Below, piece after piece: positions 4,635 to 63,604 of a DNA stretch of 64,000 bases. The stretch spans positions 2,032 through 66,031 of the forward strand of contig JBAYUN010000004.1 of NCBI GenBank assembly GCA_041675085.1, in the 5' to 3' direction. Made by a program: the position numbers and the translations under genes. Position 1 is the first letter of the stretch. Each line of letters starts with the position of its first letter. Under the pieces are notes generated by a model. That model made no database searches. It was not told the DNA's origin and worked only from the letters and a program-made list of their open reading frames with translations. The DNA comes from Minisyncoccota bacterium (GTDB taxonomy: Bacteria; Patescibacteriota; Minisyncoccia; Phycocordibacterales; UBA9973).

Positions 4635-5114
4635 TTATTTTGTTTTAGCTACTTCATTAACTGCAATAGCCAAACGTTGCATCGGAGATTGCAATAAGAA
4701 TGCAACCTTTGAAAGCAACACTTCGCGACTAGGAATAGTAGCGATTTCTTTCATATATACTCCGTCCACAAATTTACCACCAAAGATACCACCTAAAATA
4801 TTTAGAGGAACTTTGTAAGTTTTTTGGAAATTGTATATTTCACGAGCTGGAGCTAATTCATCATCTGCATAAGCCATAGCGACTTCACCATTTAATTCTG
4901 GTAATTCACCAGTAGCCTTGCCGTCCAATGCACGCTTCAATAAAGTCTTGCGACTTATTTTGTAGCTCACTCCACTCTTTCTCAAGTCTTGACGCAAGAG
5001 AGTTTCGTCTCCTACTTTCAATCCATGGAAGTTTACGAAAACTACAGATTTACTATTAATAACTGCAGTCTCTAAACCTTTTATCATTTCTTCTTTTGTT
5101 GATTTTTTTAACAT
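4635..5114 (-). CDS. rplJ: 50S ribosomal protein L10
   Basis: Typical L10 sequence, lying upstream of rplL. Confidence 0.9.
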   Translation of the reverse strand: MLKKSTKEEMIKGLETAVINSKSVVFVNFHGLKVGDETLLRQDLRKSGVSYKISRKTLLKRALDGKATGELPELNGEVAMAYADDELAPAREIYNFQKTYKVPLNILGGIFGGKFVDGVYMKEIATIPSREVLLSKVAFLLQSPMQRLAIAVNEVAKTK

Positions 5115-10520: not shown

Positions 10521-10553
10521 CTGTGGATAACTATCCAAGGGCATCCCTTGGAT
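10521..10553 (+). repeat. REP element copy A (ctgtggataactatccaagggcatcccttggat); overlaps the 3' end / stop region of the RAYT gene
   Basis: Nested palindromes tggata-ac-tatcca and atccaaggg-cat-cccttggat. The element contains TGTGGATAA, the reverse complement of the DnaA-box consensus TTATCCACA. Confidence 0.85.
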
Positions 10554-11193
10554 GATTTAACCATTCGTCTATTTCTTTTAGAAAATCTTGCTTTGAAGTA
10601 AAATATTCTGGAAAAGCTTTTATGTTTAGAATCAACACTTCCCTTCTAGGTACTTCTAAAAAATCTAAATAGCTCGAGTTGCTGTAACTGTACAAATAAT
10701 CTTTAGTTTTAGATAAATCATTTATACCTTGCTCCTTCCAAGTTGGGTCAAAAATCTTTACAGGATTGAGGTGAATATACATAAAAATATATTTTAAATA
10801 TTCATCAGAATCTAAATGCTCGGCTCGGAACCTACCTTCAAACAATTTACCCGTCCTGTCGTACTTCTTGTTGAAATACATAGAATACGCAGTCGATAAT
10901 TTCTCCATAAAAATACTAATACCGTTTTCTTGTTTTTCTTTTAGCAATAAATGAAAATGATTTGGCATCAAACAATAACTGCCAATATCGACAAGAGTTT
11001 CGCCTCGTTCTATCTTGTCCAAGGGCACCCCTTGGATAGTTTTAAAGACAACTGGTTTCGAGCCATTGCATACAAATAAAAGCTTTATAAACCTCTTGTA
11101 GTCAAAATCATCCAAAAATATCAAGGATTTATTGTTTCCCCTATTGTAAACATGATAGTATTCGTTAATTGAAAAATTTATCTTTCTTTCCAT
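10531..11193 (-). CDS. tnpA_REP: REP-associated tyrosine transposase (RAYT, IS200/IS605-type Y1 HUH transposase)
   Basis: HUH motif (YCLMPNHFHLLL), the HVYNRGNN motif and conserved Tyr residues downstream. A degenerate REP lies inside the ORF (11027-11050). Confidence 0.8.
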   Translation of the reverse strand: MERKINFSINEYYHVYNRGNNKSLIFLDDFDYKRFIKLLFVCNGSKPVVFKTIQGVPLDKIERGETLVDIGSYCLMPNHFHLLLKEKQENGISIFMEKLSTAYSMYFNKKYDRTGKLFEGRFRAEHLDSDEYLKYIFMYIHLNPVKIFDPTWKEQGINDLSKTKDYLYSYSNSSYLDFLEVPRREVLILNIKAFPEYFTSKQDFLKEIDEWLNHPRDALG

Positions 11194-12000: not shown

Positions 12001-12036
12001 TTATCCAAGGGATGCCCTTGGATAGTTATCCACAGG
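12001..12036 (-). repeat. REP copy D (reverse orientation)
   Basis: ttatccaagggatgcccttggatagttatccacagg. Confidence 0.85.
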
Positions 12037-13643: not shown

Positions 13644-13676
13644 CTGTGGATAATTATCCAAGGGCATCCCTTGGAT
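13644..13676 (+). repeat. REP copy E, followed by the gggaaggtc-aga-ccttccc hairpin (13680-13705)
   Basis: ctgtggataattatccaagggcatcccttggat. Confidence 0.85.
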
Positions 13677-13713: not shown

Positions 13714-13956
13714 TTATTCAGTGTAAAAAATATTGTTTATCTCTTCAAGAGTTAGGAATGGTTTCAAAGCTCTGATTATAGCTTTCTGTGTTCCCCTATC
13801 TAATTCGTCATGATTTGGTATTGAGATATTTTGAGTTTCGTTTATATTAACACGACTTAATCTTATATGACTTCCTTTTTGCCTAACAACAACAAAACCA
13901 AGCGCTTCTAATTCTTTAATAATTTCTTTACCTGAAAGTCTTTTAAGATTAGGCAT
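13714..13956 (-). CDS. hicA: HicA-family mRNA-interferase toxin
   Basis: GSHIRL.. and IPNHDELDRGTQKAIIRAL match the HicA/YcfA fold signature. The gene overlaps hicB by 8 nt. Confidence 0.7.
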   Translation of the reverse strand: MPNLKRLSGKEIIKELEALGFVVVRQKGSHIRLSRVNINETQNISIPNHDELDRGTQKAIIRALKPFLTLEEINNIFYTE

Positions 13957-14170
13957 ATATCATATCTGCTAAATCAAAATTAATCATAACAGGATGAGAA
14001 ATATTATCCTTTTGATCAACTTCTTCGAAATACAAATCTGTAGCTTCTTTTATATTACTTACAAGCTCCTCAAAGGTTTTACCTTGAGTTACTATCGCAT
14101 AGTCATTTGCAGAGCCGACATAATAGCCGTCTTCTCCTTTTTCTATTTTAAATAATACTATTTTTGACAT
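13949..14170 (-). CDS. hicB: HicB-family antitoxin (short, UPF0150 domain only)
   Basis: YYVGSANDYAIVTQGKTFEELVSNIKEA motif, lying upstream of and overlapping hicA. Confidence 0.6.
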   Translation of the reverse strand: MSKIVLFKIEKGEDGYYVGSANDYAIVTQGKTFEELVSNIKEATDLYFEEVDQKDNISHPVMINFDLADMIYA

Positions 14171-14236: not shown

Positions 14237-14269
14237 CTGTGGATAACTATCCAAGGGCATCCCTTGGAT
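14237..14269 (+). repeat. REP copy F
   Basis: Identical 33-mer. Confidence 0.85.
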
Positions 14270-14640: not shown

Positions 14641-14925
14641 TCTGTATTTATAAAGGGTCTAAAAAAGGAGCTGTGGATAACTATCCAAGGGCATCCCTTG
14701 GATTGGGAGTTTTGGATTTTGGGAAGGTCGGACCTTCCCAGATTTTGGTTTCTTGGTCTTGGGTAGGTCTGACCTCCCCTTTTTAAAATACAAATTGGAA
14801 CGCAAAAAGCCCTCGCTTTCGCGAGGGCTTTTTGCTGCTTTTTACGGCATCCCCTAAAAGTTTTCTTCTTTATTATTTCTTATTTATAAGATTGCATTAT
14901 TCTTTTAGTTGAGTCAAACTTACAA
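14611..14925 (-). repeat. Composite intergenic cassette, unit 1: promoter + REP copy G (14670-14702) + gggaaggtc hairpins + conserved terminator (14803-14843) + AT-rich tail
   Basis: Long stretches are shared with the units at 15735-15955 and 16456-16732. Confidence 0.7.
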
Positions 14926-15734: not shown

Positions 15735-15955
15735 TTAAAACTAGGCTGTGGATAACTATCCAAGGGCATCCCTTGGATACGGGGTTTTGGTGAGTAGTGG
15801 GTAGTGGATATTGAGATTGGAACCCCAGTCAGTCGCGACTGACTGGGCAAGAACGCAAAAAGCCCTCGCTTTCGCGAGGGCTTTTTACTGCTTTTTGCGG
15901 CATCCCCTAAAAGTTTTCTTCTTTCTTATTTCTAAGATTGAATTATTCTTTTAGT
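15735..15955 (-). repeat. Composite cassette, unit 2: REP copy H (15746-15778) + 22-bp perfect palindrome ccagtcagtcgcgactgactgg (15825-15846) + terminator hairpin (15862-15881)
   Basis: Sequence identity with units 1 and 3 across aacgcaaaaagccctcgctttcgcgagggctttttgctgcttttt..attgaattattcttttagtt. Confidence 0.7.
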
Positions 15956-16455: not shown

Positions 16456-16732
16456 TTAATTATATCACACAAGAATTTTGTGATGCAATCTGTATTTATA
16501 AAGGGTCTAAAAATGAACCTGTGGATAACTATCCAAGGGCATCCCTTGGATTTATGGTTTTGGGTTTTGGGGAGATCAGACCTTCCCTTTTCTTTTTTTT
16601 CCTTTTTTAAAATACAAATTGGAACGCAAAAAGCCCTCGCTTTCGCGGGGGCTTTTTGCTGCTTTTTACGGCATCCCTTAAAAGTTTTCTTCTTTCTTAT
16701 TTCTAAGATTGAATTATTCTTTTAGTTCAAAA
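16456..16732 (-). repeat. Composite cassette, unit 3: promoter (16459-16488) + REP copy I (16519-16551) + hairpin + terminator (16633-16652)
   Basis: As for units 1 and 2. Confidence 0.7.
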
Positions 16733-20046: not shown

Positions 20047-20640
20047 TATTTTTTTTAATTACGCCATTAATAAGTTTCGACAAAACTAAAAGCGTATTTT
20101 CTATCGTCCTCATCCCTACTTAATTAATAAATAATAATAATGCGTAGTGACTTGCGAGGACAAAAAGATTTGAACTAAACTTGAAAACATAACTAAAGAC
20201 ATTTGCAATTGTGATGCAAACATTTTTATTGTATTAAGTTTTCAATGACCTTTCTTTTACCGAATCTTTGCAATAAATTTATTTTACTAAACTTAAAACA
20301 AAGACAGGCTTTGATCCTTTGTGTACTAAATCTTTTCGACGAAATTTAGCAACAAGATCTTATACTATATATAAGTATGAGAATAAGACTTTCGTAAAAT
20401 TCTTCACACTAATAATATATACGTATACATTATAATATAGACTCTCGAATAAGAGCAATATTACAACGTGTGGATAACCGATAATTTCGCATAAGAAAAA
20501 TAAATTCTTCGCTAGTTACTCCACCTATCTATATTGGCATATTTTTGACATAAAAGCAAACACAAATTAGGTTCTAGTCGCTAGGTTCTAGGTTCTAGGA
20601 AAATGCAAAAATGCAAAAAACAAAGAAAGGTTATTAGAGA

Positions 20641-21564
20641 TTATTTTTTGAAAAAATATCTGGACCATCTCTTCTCCCCTGTCTTATACAATAGGTTGTC
20701 CTTTACCAGGGAGACGAGTTCTCTCTGGAGAGTCTTCTCACTCATGGTGGTGAATTGACCTTTTGAGAGGGAGCGAACTTCGGTTATCGTGAGTCCGTTA
20801 GGGTTGTCCTTTATCACGGATACTATCTCTGTACGGCGTTCTTGCTTGCTCGTGTTATCTTTGATATTCTCTTTATTTTTATCGTAAACTTTTGGAATAT
20901 TTTTGTTCGTATCTCCTGCCTTGGTCTTCGTCTTTGCTTCGATTTCTTTCAAAGCTTTGAGTAGGGTGCTACCCTTTTGGAGTCCGATATTGGTCGGAGC
21001 TTGTCTGATAGATTTCTTTAATCTCTCCATGTGTGACCTCTGATCTGCGTGAGAGAATTCTTGCTTTACTTCGAACATTTTAGGGCGAGATTCTAGTCTG
21101 TCTTTTATCTCGCGATTTGGATTTTGGAGAGCGTTTTGATTTTGAGTATTTTCTTCATCTTTGAATAAGTCAGATAGTACTTGGTCGCTGTAGGGATTCC
21201 TATTACCGAGAGAATCTTCGACTGACTTTTTGAAAAGATAGAATTCTTTTTTTAAGATATCGGCATTCATCTGAGACATGAGTTTTACATTACTTGAGAT
21301 GTCTAATAGAACTAGAGTTTGAGATATTTTATTTAGTAGTCCGATAGATATGTAGTCTGTCCTTGATGAGAAGGTAGATATGTCCGATATGATTTCTAGC
21401 CCTATATTTCTGAGTTTATTCCTTATGCCTTCTTGTTTGTCCATTATGTCCGTGACCATAAAGAGAGCTGTGATGAGTTTGTGAGACTTGGTGTAAGAGA
21501 AAGACAAAGTTGTGTCTTTTATATGAAAACCGATGTCTCTTGTATTGTTTTCATTATTTTCCAT
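20641..21564 (-). CDS. Hypothetical protein with a C-terminal winged-helix DNA-binding domain
   Basis: The C-terminus reads ..LTITEVRSLS..SEKTLQRELVSLVKDNLLYKTGEKRWSRY; the N-terminal 220 aa are unassigned. Confidence 0.5.
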   Translation of the reverse strand: MENNENNTRDIGFHIKDTTLSFSYTKSHKLITALFMVTDIMDKQEGIRNKLRNIGLEIISDISTFSSRTDYISIGLLNKISQTLVLLDISSNVKLMSQMNADILKKEFYLFKKSVEDSLGNRNPYSDQVLSDLFKDEENTQNQNALQNPNREIKDRLESRPKMFEVKQEFSHADQRSHMERLKKSIRQAPTNIGLQKGSTLLKALKEIEAKTKTKAGDTNKNIPKVYDKNKENIKDNTSKQERRTEIVSVIKDNPNGLTITEVRSLSKGQFTTMSEKTLQRELVSLVKDNLLYKTGEKRWSRYFFKK

Positions 21565-21606
21565 GTGTCCATTATATATTTCTCTCGGACTTTTGCAAGC
21601 CCGAGA

Positions 21607-21715
21607 TTAGGTTCTAGTTTCTAGTTACTAGGGGCTAGGTTCTAAAATTAGTTTCTAGTTTCTAGTTGATAGGTTCTAGAAAGCAAACAACTAAACACTA
21701 GCACCTAGAAACTAA
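21607..21715. repeat. Array of CTAG-containing direct repeats (taggttctag / tagtttctag) phased at about 10-11 bp; shorter arrays at 20568-20599 and 26041-26068
   Basis: At least seven TTCTAG cores within 75 bp, in the divergent region between the winged-helix gene and ftsK. Confidence 0.6.
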
Positions 21716-21741
21716 TACCTAATCTATGCTAAAATATATCA

Positions 21742-23964
21742 ATGGCGAAAAAGAAATTAAAGAGGGTTAAACGAAATGAAACACAGAAGGCGGAGGTAGA
21801 AAAAAATAATTCTTTAAGTTTAAAAACAGAAACAAAACACGGAATATTGGCTGTTGTTTTTTTTGTTATAGCATTATTTTTATTTATGTCAGCTTTTGAA
21901 ATGGGAGGAGTAGCGGGAGAATTTTTTTATAAAATTCTTTCTTATGTATTCGGAGTTGGGTATGTATTGTTGCCGATACTTTTCTTGTTGTTAGGATCAT
22001 CTTATATCAAATCTGAGAGTCCAAATCTTGGAGGTGTGCGTATTGCGAGTTCTATTTTATTCTTGCTCTCAGGTCTCGGTATTATCGATATCGCGACTAG
22101 TAGCAATCCAGGAGAATTTAGTGGAGATCATGCGGGAGGATTTTTAGGAAAAATTCTCGCGACTCCACTCGTAAATCTTTTTGATGTGTATGCGAGTATC
22201 GTATTCCTCGGAGCGTTGCTCATCATCTCGATACTAATCATGTTTGATACAAAACCAAACTTGATAAAATTCTTTAACAGCATTTACAATTTCTTTACTG
22301 GTAAAAAAGACGAGAGTCTCGAAGGTGAAGAAGAGGACGAAACAGACGAGGAAGAAGAAACAGAAGACGAGGAAGAAGTAGTCGAGAAAATAAAAAAAGT
22401 TCCAGCAGTCGCAAGTACACGCGAACCTGAAATGAAAATCGCAGAGAAAGAAGAAGAGATGCCTATCAAGAAATTGAAACCTAGCACCATGTCTAACTAC
22501 GTCCCTCCTCCTCTGTCTCTACTAGAAGAAGATAAAGGTAAAGCCAATACCGGAGACATAAAAGCAAATTCAAATATCATAAAAAGAACTCTTATGAACT
22601 TTGGTATCGAAGTCGAAATGGACGAGATAACTATCGGGCCGACAGTGACCCGTTATGCATTGAAGCCTGCCGAAGGAGTGAAACTCTCTCGTATACTCGG
22701 ACTGCAAAATGACCTATCACTCGCACTCGCTGCTCACCCTCTCCGTATCGAAGCTCCTATCCCAGGCAAGTCTCTCGTCGGTATCGAAGTCCCAAACAAA
22801 ACTAAATCTACAGTCGGACTCGCTACCCTACTCGCTGATGATAAATTCCAACATTCACCAAAACCACTAACTCTAGCACTCGGTCGTTCTATCTCGGGCA
22901 AAGCGAGTTTTGGAAACTTGGCAAAAATGCCTCACTGTCTAGTCGCGGGTACTACTGGATCTGGAAAATCTGTGACCATACACTCGATGATAACTTCTCT
23001 ACTATATAGAAACGGACCTGAGGACTTGAAATTCATCATGGTAGACCCAAAACGTGTCGAGCTCACTCTATACAAAAACATCCCTCACCTATTGACCCCA
23101 GTCATCACCGAAGCCAAGAAAGCCATCCTCGCTCTAAAATGGGCGGCGAAAGAGATGGATAGAAGATACGACATATTGGAGCAAGAGTCTGTGCGTGATA
23201 TCGAATCTTATCACAACAACGTATTAGGAAAGAATAAGTCTCGAGCGGAAGGTGAAAAAGAATTAGAGCGCATGCCTTATATCGTGATATTTATCGACGA
23301 GTTGGCGGACATCATGACCACTTATCCTCGTGAACTCGAGTCTGGTATCGTGAGACTTGCTCAAATGTCTCGTGCGGTTGGTATTCACCTAGTACTATCT
23401 ACTCAAAGACCAGAGGTAAACGTCATCACAGGACTTATCAAGGCCAACGTCCCTGCTCGTATAGCTCTAAAAGTATCTTCACAAATAGACTCTCGTACAA
23501 TACTCGACACAGGAGGAGCCGAGAAATTGCTCGGAGCGGGAGACATGCTCTACTCTTCAGGTGAGGCACAACCAGAACGTCTACAAAGTGCCTTTATATC
23601 TGAGACTGAAGTTAAGAAAGTCGTGAGTTATCTATCTGATGCTTATAAAGATGAAATCAATGCAGAAATAAATCTAACTCCTGCTAGCGTGGGAAACGAC
23701 AAAGGGATATTCGAAAGTACTCTCGACGGCGAGGATGAAGTCGACGATGAGATGTATGAAGAAGCTCGTGCGACAGTTATCGAAGCTGGTAAAGCTAGTA
23801 CTTCATACCTACAAAGGAAACTCAAGCTCGGATATGCTCGTGCAGCGCGCCTAATAGACGTACTCGAAGCGAGAGGAGTTATCGGTCCTGGAGACGGAGC
23901 AAAGCCGAGAGAAGTATTGGAGAAAATCAACAGAGATGAGAACGGCGATAACGTCATGGAATAA
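21742..23964 (+). CDS. ftsK: DNA translocase FtsK/SpoIIIE
   Basis: N-terminal TM helices, an acidic linker, Walker A (VAGTTGSGKSV) and a C-terminal gamma (winged-helix) domain. Confidence 0.9.
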   Translation: MAKKKLKRVKRNETQKAEVEKNNSLSLKTETKHGILAVVFFVIALFLFMSAFEMGGVAGEFFYKILSYVFGVGYVLLPILFLLLGSSYIKSESPNLGGVRIASSILFLLSGLGIIDIATSSNPGEFSGDHAGGFLGKILATPLVNLFDVYASIVFLGALLIISILIMFDTKPNLIKFFNSIYNFFTGKKDESLEGEEEDETDEEEETEDEEEVVEKIKKVPAVASTREPEMKIAEKEEEMPIKKLKPSTMSNYVPPPLSLLEEDKGKANTGDIKANSNIIKRTLMNFGIEVEMDEITIGPTVTRYALKPAEGVKLSRILGLQNDLSLALAAHPLRIEAPIPGKSLVGIEVPNKTKSTVGLATLLADDKFQHSPKPLTLALGRSISGKASFGNLAKMPHCLVAGTTGSGKSVTIHSMITSLLYRNGPEDLKFIMVDPKRVELTLYKNIPHLLTPVITEAKKAILALKWAAKEMDRRYDILEQESVRDIESYHNNVLGKNKSRAEGEKELERMPYIVIFIDELADIMTTYPRELESGIVRLAQMSRAVGIHLVLSTQRPEVNVITGLIKANVPARIALKVSSQIDSRTILDTGGAEKLLGAGDMLYSSGEAQPERLQSAFISETEVKKVVSYLSDAYKDEINAEINLTPASVGNDKGIFESTLDGEDEVDDEMYEEARATVIEAGKASTSYLQRKLKLGYARAARLIDVLEARGVIGPGDGAKPREVLEKINRDENGDNVME

Positions 23965-26032: not shown

Positions 26033-26083
26033 GAATTTGGTACTAGTTTCTAGTGACTAGGTTATAGGTTTAAATACAACAAT

Positions 26084-26120
26084 AAAAAAGCCCTCAGCCT
26101 AAGGCTGAGGGCTTTTTTAT
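26084..26120. terminator. Bidirectional terminator between convergent efp and rpsR (gccctcagcc taa ggctgagggc)
   Basis: Perfect 10-bp stem with A- and T-runs. Confidence 0.65.
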
Positions 26121-26137
26121 TTAATATTTATAGAATA

Positions 26138-26351: not shown

Positions 26352-26375
26352 CCCTGTCAGTCGCGACTGACGGGG
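26352..26375. repeat. Family-2 palindromic element ccctgtcagtcgcgactgacgggg, in the ssb-rpsR spacer
   Basis: Near-perfect 24-bp palindrome, also present at 15825, 62728 and 63646. Confidence 0.7.
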
Positions 26376-62727: not shown

Positions 62728-62751
62728 CCCTGTCAGCCGCGACTGACGGGG
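62728..62751. repeat. Family-2 palindromic element (ccctgtcagccgcgactgacgggg), followed by a hairpin terminator at 62763-62783
   Basis: Seen directly in the sequence. Confidence 0.65.
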
Positions 62752-63118: not shown

Positions 63119-63604
63119 TTATTTACCCAAGAGTATTTCGTGACGAACTTCTTCTTTAAATGATTTCACATCTTGAGAAATACCAGTTATTTGGTCTTGT
63201 AGTCTTGCTTCGGTTTCTAGTAGGTCTGTTTTAGTAGCAAAAGCTTTTAAATCTTCTTTATTAGTCATATTTTCTAAAATATAAGCAGTAGTTTTTGCAA
63301 TTAAATCTACCTTTGTATCTGTTTCTAGCAAATCGGTTTTAGTGGCAAGAGCTTTTAAATCTTCTTTAGTAGCCATATTTTGCTCCAAAGTACTTAAATC
63401 TTCTTTAGTAGCCATATTTTGCTCCAAAGTACTTAAATCTTCTTTGGTGGCCATTTTTTGTTCCAAAGTACTTAAATCTTCTTTGGTCGCCATTTTTTGT
63501 TCCAAAGTACTTAAATCTTCTTTGGTCGCCATTTTTTGTTCCAAAGTAATAAACCTCCTATTTATAGATTCTAGTAATTCTTTATTGGAGATATCTTTTT
63601 CCAT
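63119..63604 (-). CDS. Coiled-coil tandem-repeat protein (TLEQKMATKEDLS x5), paralogue of 15964..16452
   Basis: Five head-to-tail 39-bp DNA repeats at 63356-63550. Confidence 0.6.
   Translation of the reverse strand: MEKDISNKELLESINRRFITLEQKMATKEDLSTLEQKMATKEDLSTLEQKMATKEDLSTLEQNMATKEDLSTLEQNMATKEDLKALATKTDLLETDTKVDLIAKTTAYILENMTNKEDLKAFATKTDLLETEARLQDQITGISQDVKSFKEEVRHEILLGK

Follow-up and report, generated by a model that had tools for sequence, protein, structure and literature searches.

We analysed a 64,000-nt stretch of DNA (the window; contig JBAYUN010000004.1, 35% GC, 87% coding density) from the chromosome of a Paceibacteria host, a member of the candidate phyla radiation (CPR), and found that three consecutive intergenic regions around ftsK and a gene for a 307-amino-acid winged-helix protein, here called X, carry arrays of 7-bp units repeated head-to-tail. 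We are confident that these arrays are heterogeneous intergenic heptanucleotide tandem repeats, and that they are neither iterons nor a conserved operator of X. They are a CTAG-core example, in a Paceibacteria host, of a kind of repeat that is already known. The fuller explanation that we prefer, in which a heptamer family turns over by replication slippage and promoter-bound arrays act as a binding lattice, is advanced tentatively, at slightly under an even chance.

The sequence TAGKTTCTAG occurs ten times in the window against 0.39 expected, a number that none of 100 shuffles of the window reached, and all ten occurrences fall in the three intergenic regions bearing arrays (20114–20640, 21565–21741 and 26033–26137), which are consecutive among the 28 window intergenic regions of at least 80 bp. 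Fixed-spacing runs of three or more TAG or CTA in the window were essentially of period 7 alone, and were found at these arrays alone. Neither the other ~58 kb of the window nor the 10 kb past its left end (74 kb of this genome in total) showed any further array. An earlier note on this DNA had described CTAG-rich arrays at these three places, and both Tandem Repeats Finder (TRF), which we used for period and copy number, and direct reading confirm them. The 10–11-bp helical phasing that it assigned to them, however, is not seen. TTCTAG starts on the plus strand at 21612, 21619, 21653, 21660 and 21674, with gaps of 7, 34, 7 and 14, and TRF gives a period of 7, that is, head-to-tail heptamers. 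Instead of at least seven TTCTAG cores there are five exact ones, the other units being degenerate (TTACTAG, GGGCTAG, TTGATAG). Nor is CTAG scarce, as had been supposed: it was observed 187 times in the window, with 186 (Markov) to 204 (mononucleotide) expected, and its rarity is therefore no argument for selection here.

Array A (20568–20599, plus strand; TRF period 7, 4.6 copies, consensus TAGGTTC) reads TAGGTTC TAGTCGC TAGGTTC TAGGTTC TAGG, with TAGKTTCTAG matches at 20568, 20582 and 20589. It lies 42 bp 3′ of the X stop codon, in a variable stretch before a conserved ~450-bp non-coding block, and is adjoined by an 8-bp tandem repeat, AAAATGCA ×2.5 (20600–20619, plus strand, TRF, 100% matches). 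Array B (21608–21683, plus strand) consists of 11 heptamers, TAGGTTC TAGTTTC TAGTTAC TAGGGGC TAGGTTC TAAAAT TAGTTTC TAGTTTC TAGTTGA TAGGTTC TAGAAAG, one of them 6 bp long; TRF reports 21608–21679, period 7, 10.4 copies, consensus TAGTTTC. It starts 9 bp upstream of the −35 hexamer of X. After a 7-bp gap follows array B′ (21691–21725, minus strand), five inverted heptamers that read CTAAACA CTAGCAC CTAGAAA CTAATAC CTAATCT on the plus strand, a run of five CTA with period 7; this array is additional to those named in the earlier note. Array C (26044–26071, plus strand; four heptamers read directly, TAGTTTC TAGTGAC TAGGTTA TAGGTTT) begins 11 bp past the efp stop codon, upstream of a bidirectional intrinsic terminator hairpin common to efp and rpsR (26081–26121, found by a terminator scan, 19-pair stem, both strands), which is context and stands outside the repeat family. 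Arrays A and C are unpaired. An independent assembly (L208), probably of the same strain, is 100% identical over 6073 bp including the arrays, in this one comparison.

Arrays B and B′ mirror each other. The segments 21604–21638 and 21691–21725 form a 35-nt inverted repeat, 80% complementary, whose blocks pair unit by unit from the outside in, B′ being the right arm of a large imperfect palindrome. Folded as single-stranded DNA, 21600–21740 gives −22.6 kcal/mol (z = −4.97). A miniature transposon was considered as the source of the palindromic B/B′ and rejected, since the block shows no target-site duplication and arrays A and C lack an inverted partner.

The start codons of X and ftsK are 177 bp apart, and 122 bp of this gap (21604–21725) is made of 7-bp units. 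We predicted promoters in the window by a consensus scan followed by comparison across relatives, using loci collected by a scan with one genome per species (80 loci, 82 in later comparisons; labelled L001 and so on, with ~12 kb fetched per locus). The predicted X promoter, TTGCAA-16-TATAAT (21571–21598, minus strand), has 10 of 12 consensus matches and a layout conserved across loci. The predicted ftsK promoter, TAGAAA-18-TG-c-TAAAAT (21706–21735, plus strand), is of the extended −10 type, and array B′ spans its −35 region and spacer. Upstream of ftsK, 64 aligned loci share TGnTAAAAT-A-N5-ATGGCAAA, with the TG present in 98%; most related genomes have no conserved ftsK −35 element. In both genes the ATG lies 6–7 nt past the −10 box (6 nt each in the window, with the ftsK ATG at 21742), and the X and ftsK mRNAs are therefore probably leaderless. 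The promoter scan and the aligned loci thus agree with the earlier note in placing an array in the ftsK promoter region, and a regulatory role stays plausible.

Two features of the units suggest constraint at the ftsK–X gap. The first is the core. Among 75 units, mismatches to the consensus of the unit's own array numbered 1, 2, 13, 24, 22, 27 and 17 at positions 1 to 7, in a test that is biased because the register was picked on TA. Position 3 was G in 58 units and A in 13, and position 7 was C or T in 64 of 75, so that the core recurring every 7 bp is Y-TA-R (CTAG, TTAG or CTAA). In array B itself TA is kept in 11 of 11 units while the other positions change three to five times, and TA(G/A) recurs 11 times at 7-bp steps. 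The second feature is register. When 72 ftsK promoters were aligned on TGnTAAAAT, CTA peaked (counts in brackets) at −11 (11), −18 (8), −25 (12), −32 (6) and −39 (3), with counts of 0–4 at all other offsets. This 7-bp ladder, in fixed register with the extended −10 element, comes from genomes of several clades; roughly one in six relatives has such units at ftsK.

Related genomes carry similar arrays near X, though loosely. In 844 kb of related loci we counted 67 TAG/CTA period-7 runs, compared with 3–16 in block shuffles, including 25 just downstream of X, 12 in the ftsK–X gap and 7 in the gap between a small gene and recA. In a TRF census of 920 kb of Paceibacteria sequence, period 7 was the commonest among arrays of at least three copies; it was found in 36 arrays, of which 20 had a TAG/CTA core. 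A TRF-detectable array of period 7 or 8 was present in 15 of 125 X-flanking intergenic regions (12%), and array density was 0.48 per kb there versus 0.22 per kb in other intergenic regions. X-flanking intergenic regions are also twice as long (333 bp versus 172 bp), which explains part of the enrichment. The unit varies by lineage (TAGGTTC, TAGGCTC/TAGGCNT, AATTTTC, CAATTAA). A mirror-image arrangement at the ftsK–X gap was also seen in L001, L021, L049 and L078, inverted-pair arrays downstream of X and efp in L017, L037, L061, L070 and L076, and a post-efp array in the equivalent position in L061. The check proposed in the earlier note, whether arrays accompany X in relatives, thus gives a divided answer: they are enriched near X, but patchy and absent from the closest relatives. 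We also noted that in other lineages AATT-core arrays of period 7 or 8 (AATTTTC/TGAAAAT, CAATTAA, AATTCGT) occupy the same two X-flanking sites, namely the ftsK–X gap in L024 and L076 and the region downstream of X in L067, L051 and L004, with inverted pairs in L076; the two sites are conserved though the unit is not.

Three further observations on the spread of heptamers were set aside as evidence. Co-occurrence at several sites, taken as a sign of a trans-acting factor, was not significant (7 loci with at least two sites versus ~4.5 expected, as roughly estimated by hand). In eight relatives, the heptamer-like runs within ftsK are not arrays but encode a conserved linker peptide, KLKPKAYGLTPNY, immediately before the alpha domain. 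The 35-nt stretch, in which TAG/CTA recurs five times, once every 7 nt, is located at 4824–4858 in L017, 5058–5092 in L021, 3254–3288 in L025 and 5056–5090 in L067, and is also present in L069, L076, L052 and L056; one unit has TAT for TAA and the frame stays open. The likeness to the heptamers may be a coincidence, or the stretch may be an absorbed array. Finally, an exact scan of metagenome contigs for three copies of CTAGGNN followed by CTAG gave at least 120 contigs with a GC content of 0.33–0.72, and no X, ftsK or recA homologues were detected on the matching contigs among the matches listed. In viral contigs, however, CTAGG-core heptamers formed 61 stretches, and three cores matched to them in composition, used as controls, gave 68, 66 and at least 120. 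Since the control cores are as common or commoner, the wide occurrence of CTAGG reflects heptamer repeats in general, and the idea of a special cross-phylum family of CTAG heptamers is weakened.

In most prokaryotic genomes, no other class of long simple repeat is as abundant as that of heptanucleotides; replication slippage has been proposed as their origin, and the two papers cited here give them no firmly established function (PMC4679880, PMC4692102). The GGGAATC repeats of Xanthomonas and GGGGA(T/C)T repeats of Nostoc are intergenic, with heterogeneous units that have few conserved positions; they often form inverted pairs and occupy shared sites in related species while varying widely in length and sequence (PMC4692102). 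TAACTGA repeats, which place stops in all forward frames, occur in marine Beggiatoaceae, cyanobacteria and Bacteroidetes, and the heptameric STRR repeats of Calothrix are of the same class (PMC4679880). The arrays described here have the same properties: a 7-bp unit head-to-tail in at least three copies, a non-coding location, heterogeneous units that keep a common core, inverted pairs that could fold into stem-loops or cruciforms, and the same intergenic sites in relatives with rapid turnover of length and sequence; arrays of about 2–26 copies are common to both. They differ from the known heptameric simple sequence repeats in the CTAG/YTAR core (not TAACTGA, and having no G-tract and thus no G-quadruplex potential), in the host, a CPR genome, in being confined within 74 kb to one conserved cluster rather than scattered, and in their fixed register with the −10 element at ftsK.

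We propose that replication slippage gives rise to the arrays and drives their turnover, and that those retained at promoters would form a lattice of contiguous weak sites, to which a small DNA-binding protein would bind cooperatively as dimers. Once in place, this protein would occlude the ftsK promoter (its −35 region and spacer) and would abut the X promoter, while the unpaired arrays after X and after efp would belong to the same repeat family, in permissive 3′ flanks. The binding-lattice function taken on its own is possible but in our judgement somewhat doubtful. It follows the logic of plasmid pSM19035, a system that shows such lattices to be workable: its omega protein binds 7–10 contiguous 7-bp repeats, direct and inverted, that overlap promoters, with one dimer per heptad and cooperation between neighbours, the heptads serving as operators and as centromeres (parS) (PMC9499535). 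As there, at least four contiguous direct and inverted heptads (11 + 5 units) lie here over a promoter. The omega unit, however, is WATCACW, whereas here it is YTAGKNN, and omega is a ribbon-helix-helix protein encoded beside its sites in a plasmid-borne system with ParA, whereas the protein adjoining the present arrays is a winged helix with a separate palindrome of its own. No ribbon-helix-helix gene was evident among the small open reading frames (ORFs) of the window, by inspection only and with no systematic family scan, and no ParA gene lies beside the arrays, which sit in a chromosomal core synteny shared by ~80 genomes. With neither protein found, we do not assign the arrays to the omega family.

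Apart from that missing binder, several observations weigh against the binding lattice, and some of them also favour its main rival, neutral slippage. In this view functionless heptameric microsatellites expand and decay in the few places where a compact genome leaves long, permissive intergenic DNA, and the core and register derive from recent common descent of units within each array and from shared ancestry of the promoter-proximal ones. The abundance of heptamers among long prokaryotic simple repeats, and slippage as their proposed source (PMC4679880, PMC4692102), favour this account. So does the distribution: the closest relatives (L203, L204, L206 and L003, with X 71–76% identical) lack CTAG heptamers, only 12% of X-flanking regions have arrays, and on a tree of the X protein array-bearing genomes are scattered, often with array-free sisters. 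Such patchiness, which fits an origin and turnover by slippage, also suggests that the arrays are dispensable over evolution. Unrelated repeats replace the unit at the same site. Between the promoters L203 and L206 carry AAAATAC ×3 and an unrelated 18-bp inverted repeat; where the window has array A, an 8-mer array (AGTTATAA ×4.4) is found in L001, a GC-rich hairpin resembling a repetitive extragenic palindromic (REP) element in L203, and no repeat in L206 and L003. Arrays A and C, moreover, are away from promoters and have opposite orientations relative to the transcripts that would contain them, viral contigs have control-core heptamers just as often, the greater length of X-flanking regions accounts for part of the enrichment, and the phase lock at ftsK could partly reflect shared ancestry rather than constraint.

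Neutral slippage is nevertheless hard to reconcile with the invariance of TA while positions 4–7 vary, which is unexpected under uniform decay; AT-biased mutation does not explain it, because T at positions 5 and 6 varies freely. The CTA ladder in fixed register with the ftsK −10 element in several clades, the mirror-symmetric arrangement, and the repeated occupation of the same two or three sites in distant lineages, in genomes with a coding density of 87%, also speak against it, as does, in a single comparison, the complete identity of the arrays in the independent assembly. On balance we consider neutral slippage rather unlikely, though it is the most serious of the alternatives.

Another candidate for binding the arrays is X itself. 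Gene X (20641–21564, minus strand) has homologues (959 found) that, where named, belong to Paceibacterota, Nomurabacteria or Patescibacteria. In essentially all of the ~80 loci the order is a peptidoglycan (PG)-binding gene and X on one strand, then, divergently, ftsK, a small Glucodextran_B-like gene, recA and efp; X and ftsK are divergent in every genome examined. The window ftsK (21742–23964, plus strand), identified by this synteny and by the Pfam domains FtsK_4TM, FtsK_alpha, FtsK_SpoIIIE and FtsK_gamma, heads the conserved ftsK/Glucodextran_B-like/recA/efp row. By these comparisons X is a chromosomal core gene of the Paceibacteria lineage. No match to X was found in Pfam, NCBIfam or the PDB, and PHROGs and PADLOC gave only weak matches, to winged-helix regions. 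An AlphaFold model from a 45-sequence alignment (pLDDT 73.5) has a confident four-helix bundle at residues ~27–119, a low-confidence, poorly ordered linker with the conserved motif TRIGVQKGSTLLKAL, and a confident winged helix-turn-helix at residues ~230–305. Foldseek searches matched the first domain to four-helix bundles of the 23S-rRNA-intervening-sequence type (2gsc, 2rld) and the last to the winged helices of Fur, PerR, ArsR and TubR, all with weak E values of 0.01–0.1, and the C-terminal region of the PADLOC SoFic model matched residues 211–304 (E 4e-4). The C-terminal winged helix proposed in the earlier note is thus borne out by model, structure search and profile alike. Residues K277, T278, L279, Q280, R281 and L283 of the recognition helix are identical in the 45 sequences.

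It was suggested that X is an autoregulated repressor and the heptamer arrays its operators, through which it would control X and ftsK. A winged helix in a protein divergent from ftsK everywhere, arrays on both flanks of X in the window and an approximately twofold per-kb enrichment beside X in relatives are all in its favour, and the TAGG/CCTA core, the sole feature common to the arrays of different lineages, could match the invariant recognition helix. However, most X homologues, including those 71–76% identical, have no adjacent arrays (15 of 125 regions have one), some lineages have AATT-core or other units at the corresponding sites, further arrays lie at a distance from X, both past efp and in the gap that separates the small gene from recA, and the at least 120 metagenome contigs with CTAGG arrays showed no X among the matches listed. 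Arrays that are missing from close relatives, with a unit that changes while the helix does not, are not conserved operators of X. A different sequence has that conservation. In 61 of the 82 loci the X start reads TTGMNT, a spacer and TATAATGGACA(N0-2)ATG, that is, the −35 element, TATAAT, GGACA and then the ATG (AATGGACA(N0-2)ATG, likewise in 61 of 82). In most relatives a palindrome, TGTCC-N10-GGACA, brackets the −10 box of X; its exact form was found in 24 loci, once in each and at the X start only, among all fetched loci. The window has a variant, the inverted repeat GTCC-N16-GGAC across the X −10 box (21567–21590). Lying over the promoter of X, conserved with it and specific to it, TGTCC-N10-GGACA is a candidate autoregulatory operator of X. 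It has the form usual for the operator of a dimeric winged-helix autorepressor and is unlike the heptamer. X with this palindrome over its own −10 box resembles the generic autoregulated winged-helix repressors (MarR-, ArsR- or Fur-like), a likeness that concerns the palindrome and not the arrays; X differs from them in adding an N-terminal four-helix bundle that resembles S23-type proteins, and in belonging to no curated family.

Given this candidate operator over its own −10 box, X is unlikely to be the binder of the lattice, and we regard the notion that the arrays are its operators as improbable. A broader version, in which the Y-TA-R lattices would be the cis-elements of a so far undescribed control system, present in many Paceibacteria, for the conserved division/repair cluster of X, ftsK, recA and efp, read by oligomeric X or by another heptad-binding protein, is a long shot too, if a slightly better one. 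Among known repressors, the met-box arrays of MetJ and the tandem operators of TrpR in E. coli also have a CTAG step at a fixed short interval, where dimers bind cooperatively over a promoter. The likeness lies in tandem short repeats with a recurring CTAG step; in those systems, however, the period is 8 bp, there are 2–5 repeats, and the sites are well conserved with the repressor, whereas the period here is 7 bp, and neither the MetJ nor the TrpR family was detected here.

Less probable still is a structural or translational role, in which the mirror arrays would act as cruciforms or as RNA 3′ hairpins (a supercoiling buffer or a terminator), or the repeats would insulate translation by stops in six frames. 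The stable fold of the B/B′ region, the frequent inverted pairs in relatives' arrays past X and efp (in L017 the second arm ends in TTTT) and the plain GC-rich hairpin of L203 at the same site are consistent with such a role. The C/T-TA-G/A variation keeps a stop codon on both strands, and TAACTGA repeats too give stops in all forward frames (PMC4679880). But arrays A and C have no inverted partner, past array C a canonical terminator is already present, and B/B′ lie between divergent promoters and are probably not transcribed. The AATTTTC and ATTTTGT units at the same sites give no six-frame stops by our own reading, and transitions are the commonest substitutions anyway, which makes the Y/R variation weak evidence for selection of stops. 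Known RNAs in or beside the arrays were also considered and rejected: the Rfam matches were sub-threshold and are explained by the efp/rpsR terminator hairpin or by the array palindrome.

Plasmid iterons of the RepA/Pi type are ~17–22 bp long, have roughly helical spacing, and lie near a Rep gene and an AT-rich unwinding element. The present arrays resemble them in being direct repeats near a winged-helix gene, and have none of these other traits: the unit is 7 bp, no Rep gene lies beside them and their chromosomal context is conserved. The reading that the arrays are an iteron origin, a partition centromere or a recombination site, with X as initiator, centromere-binder or directionality factor, has in its favour the direct repeats flanking a gene for a DNA-binding protein, a perfect DnaA-box sequence (TTATCCACA) ~90 bp from array A and the 7-bp arrays of the omega/ParB centromeres of pSM19035 (PMC9499535), but it is effectively refuted and we give it almost no credence: the invariant synteny of X in ~80 species-level genomes removes the plasmid iteron and partition readings, family searches found no Rep, ParA or ParB signature in X, a Pfam scan of the neighbours found no Rep, ParA, ParB, integrase or recombinase adjoining it, the unit is 7 bp and not ~20 bp (17–22 bp), the locus has no GC-skew switch, TTATCCACA in the window mostly belongs to a dispersed 33-bp REP-like element or precedes ordinary promoters, and ftsK and recA would be deleted if arrays A and C recombined.

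Several other elements were found in and beside the window. The 33-bp element ATCCAAGGGATGCCCTTGGATAGTTATCCACAG, a hairpin with a perfect DnaA-box sequence, is present in seven copies, six of them perfect (10521–10553, 12003–12035, 13644–13676, 14237–14269, 14671–14703, 15746–15778 and 16519–16551). One copy overlaps the 3′ end of a gene resembling Y1 (IS200/IS605-type) transposases (10531–11193), the copy at 12003 is inverted, and those at 14671 and 16519 are each followed by ~70 bp of further identical sequence. These features suggest that ATCCAAGGGATGCCCTTGGATAGTTATCCACAG is a REP element, accompanied by its REP-associated tyrosine transposase. A nearby oriC, suggested by 13 perfect TTATCCACA boxes, was rejected: seven are in the 33-bp element, the rest precede ordinary promoters, and the skew does not switch. 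The stand-alone perfect boxes (1410, 3431, 14938, 20469 and 44773) are preceded by AAAG/CGG and followed ~28–43 nt later by a TATAAT-like −10 box. This arrangement suggests that stand-alone TTATCCACA is a recurring upstream promoter element, for DnaA as a transcription factor or for another factor, and not an origin.

Between X and the PG-binding gene, the ~450-bp non-coding block mentioned above (20114–20560, minus-strand sense) has 77% mean column identity, with long invariant runs, in genomes whose X is only 71–76% identical. Within it are a TTATCCACA box and a promoter, TTGCTC-N17/18-TATAAT, as well as a ~300-nt leader ahead of the PG-binding gene. The block matched no Rfam family and is possibly a regulatory leader RNA. 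A second dispersed palindrome, CC(C/T)GTCAGTCGCGACTGACGGG, lies at 26353–26374, 15825–15846 and 62729–62750 in the window and also in L203, L005 and L001; it is common to different Paceibacteria genomes and sits at the array A site in L203. Near the right end of the window, 63355–63548 is a 39-bp unit repeated 5.0 times (96% identity, TRF score 325). Two small overlapping ORFs of 80 and 73 amino acids at 13714–14170 look, from a reading of the sequence, like a HicA/HicB toxin–antitoxin pair. The 23S and 5S rRNA genes lie directly past the left end of the window (L209, 11097–14901), with no adjacent 16S rRNA gene within the stretch fetched to the left.

If the arrays are neutral, they are an ordinary example of microsatellite turnover. 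The more informative products of this analysis are the candidate palindrome of X and the heptamer ladder phase-locked to the ftsK promoter. The arrays can be separated from the winged-helix gene, whose uncharacterised protein family, present in many Paceibacteria, gains a candidate operator and with it a candidate circuit of autoregulation. Were X shown to regulate ftsK and recA, it could be a functional stand-in for an SOS-type repressor. Gene regulation in these hosts is almost unstudied, and the locus is a compact case of a repeat family in register with the conserved, apparently leaderless promoter of an essential division gene. Should the binding lattice prove true, it would be a CPR chromosomal counterpart of the omega heptad operators, phase-locked to a leaderless extended −10 promoter.

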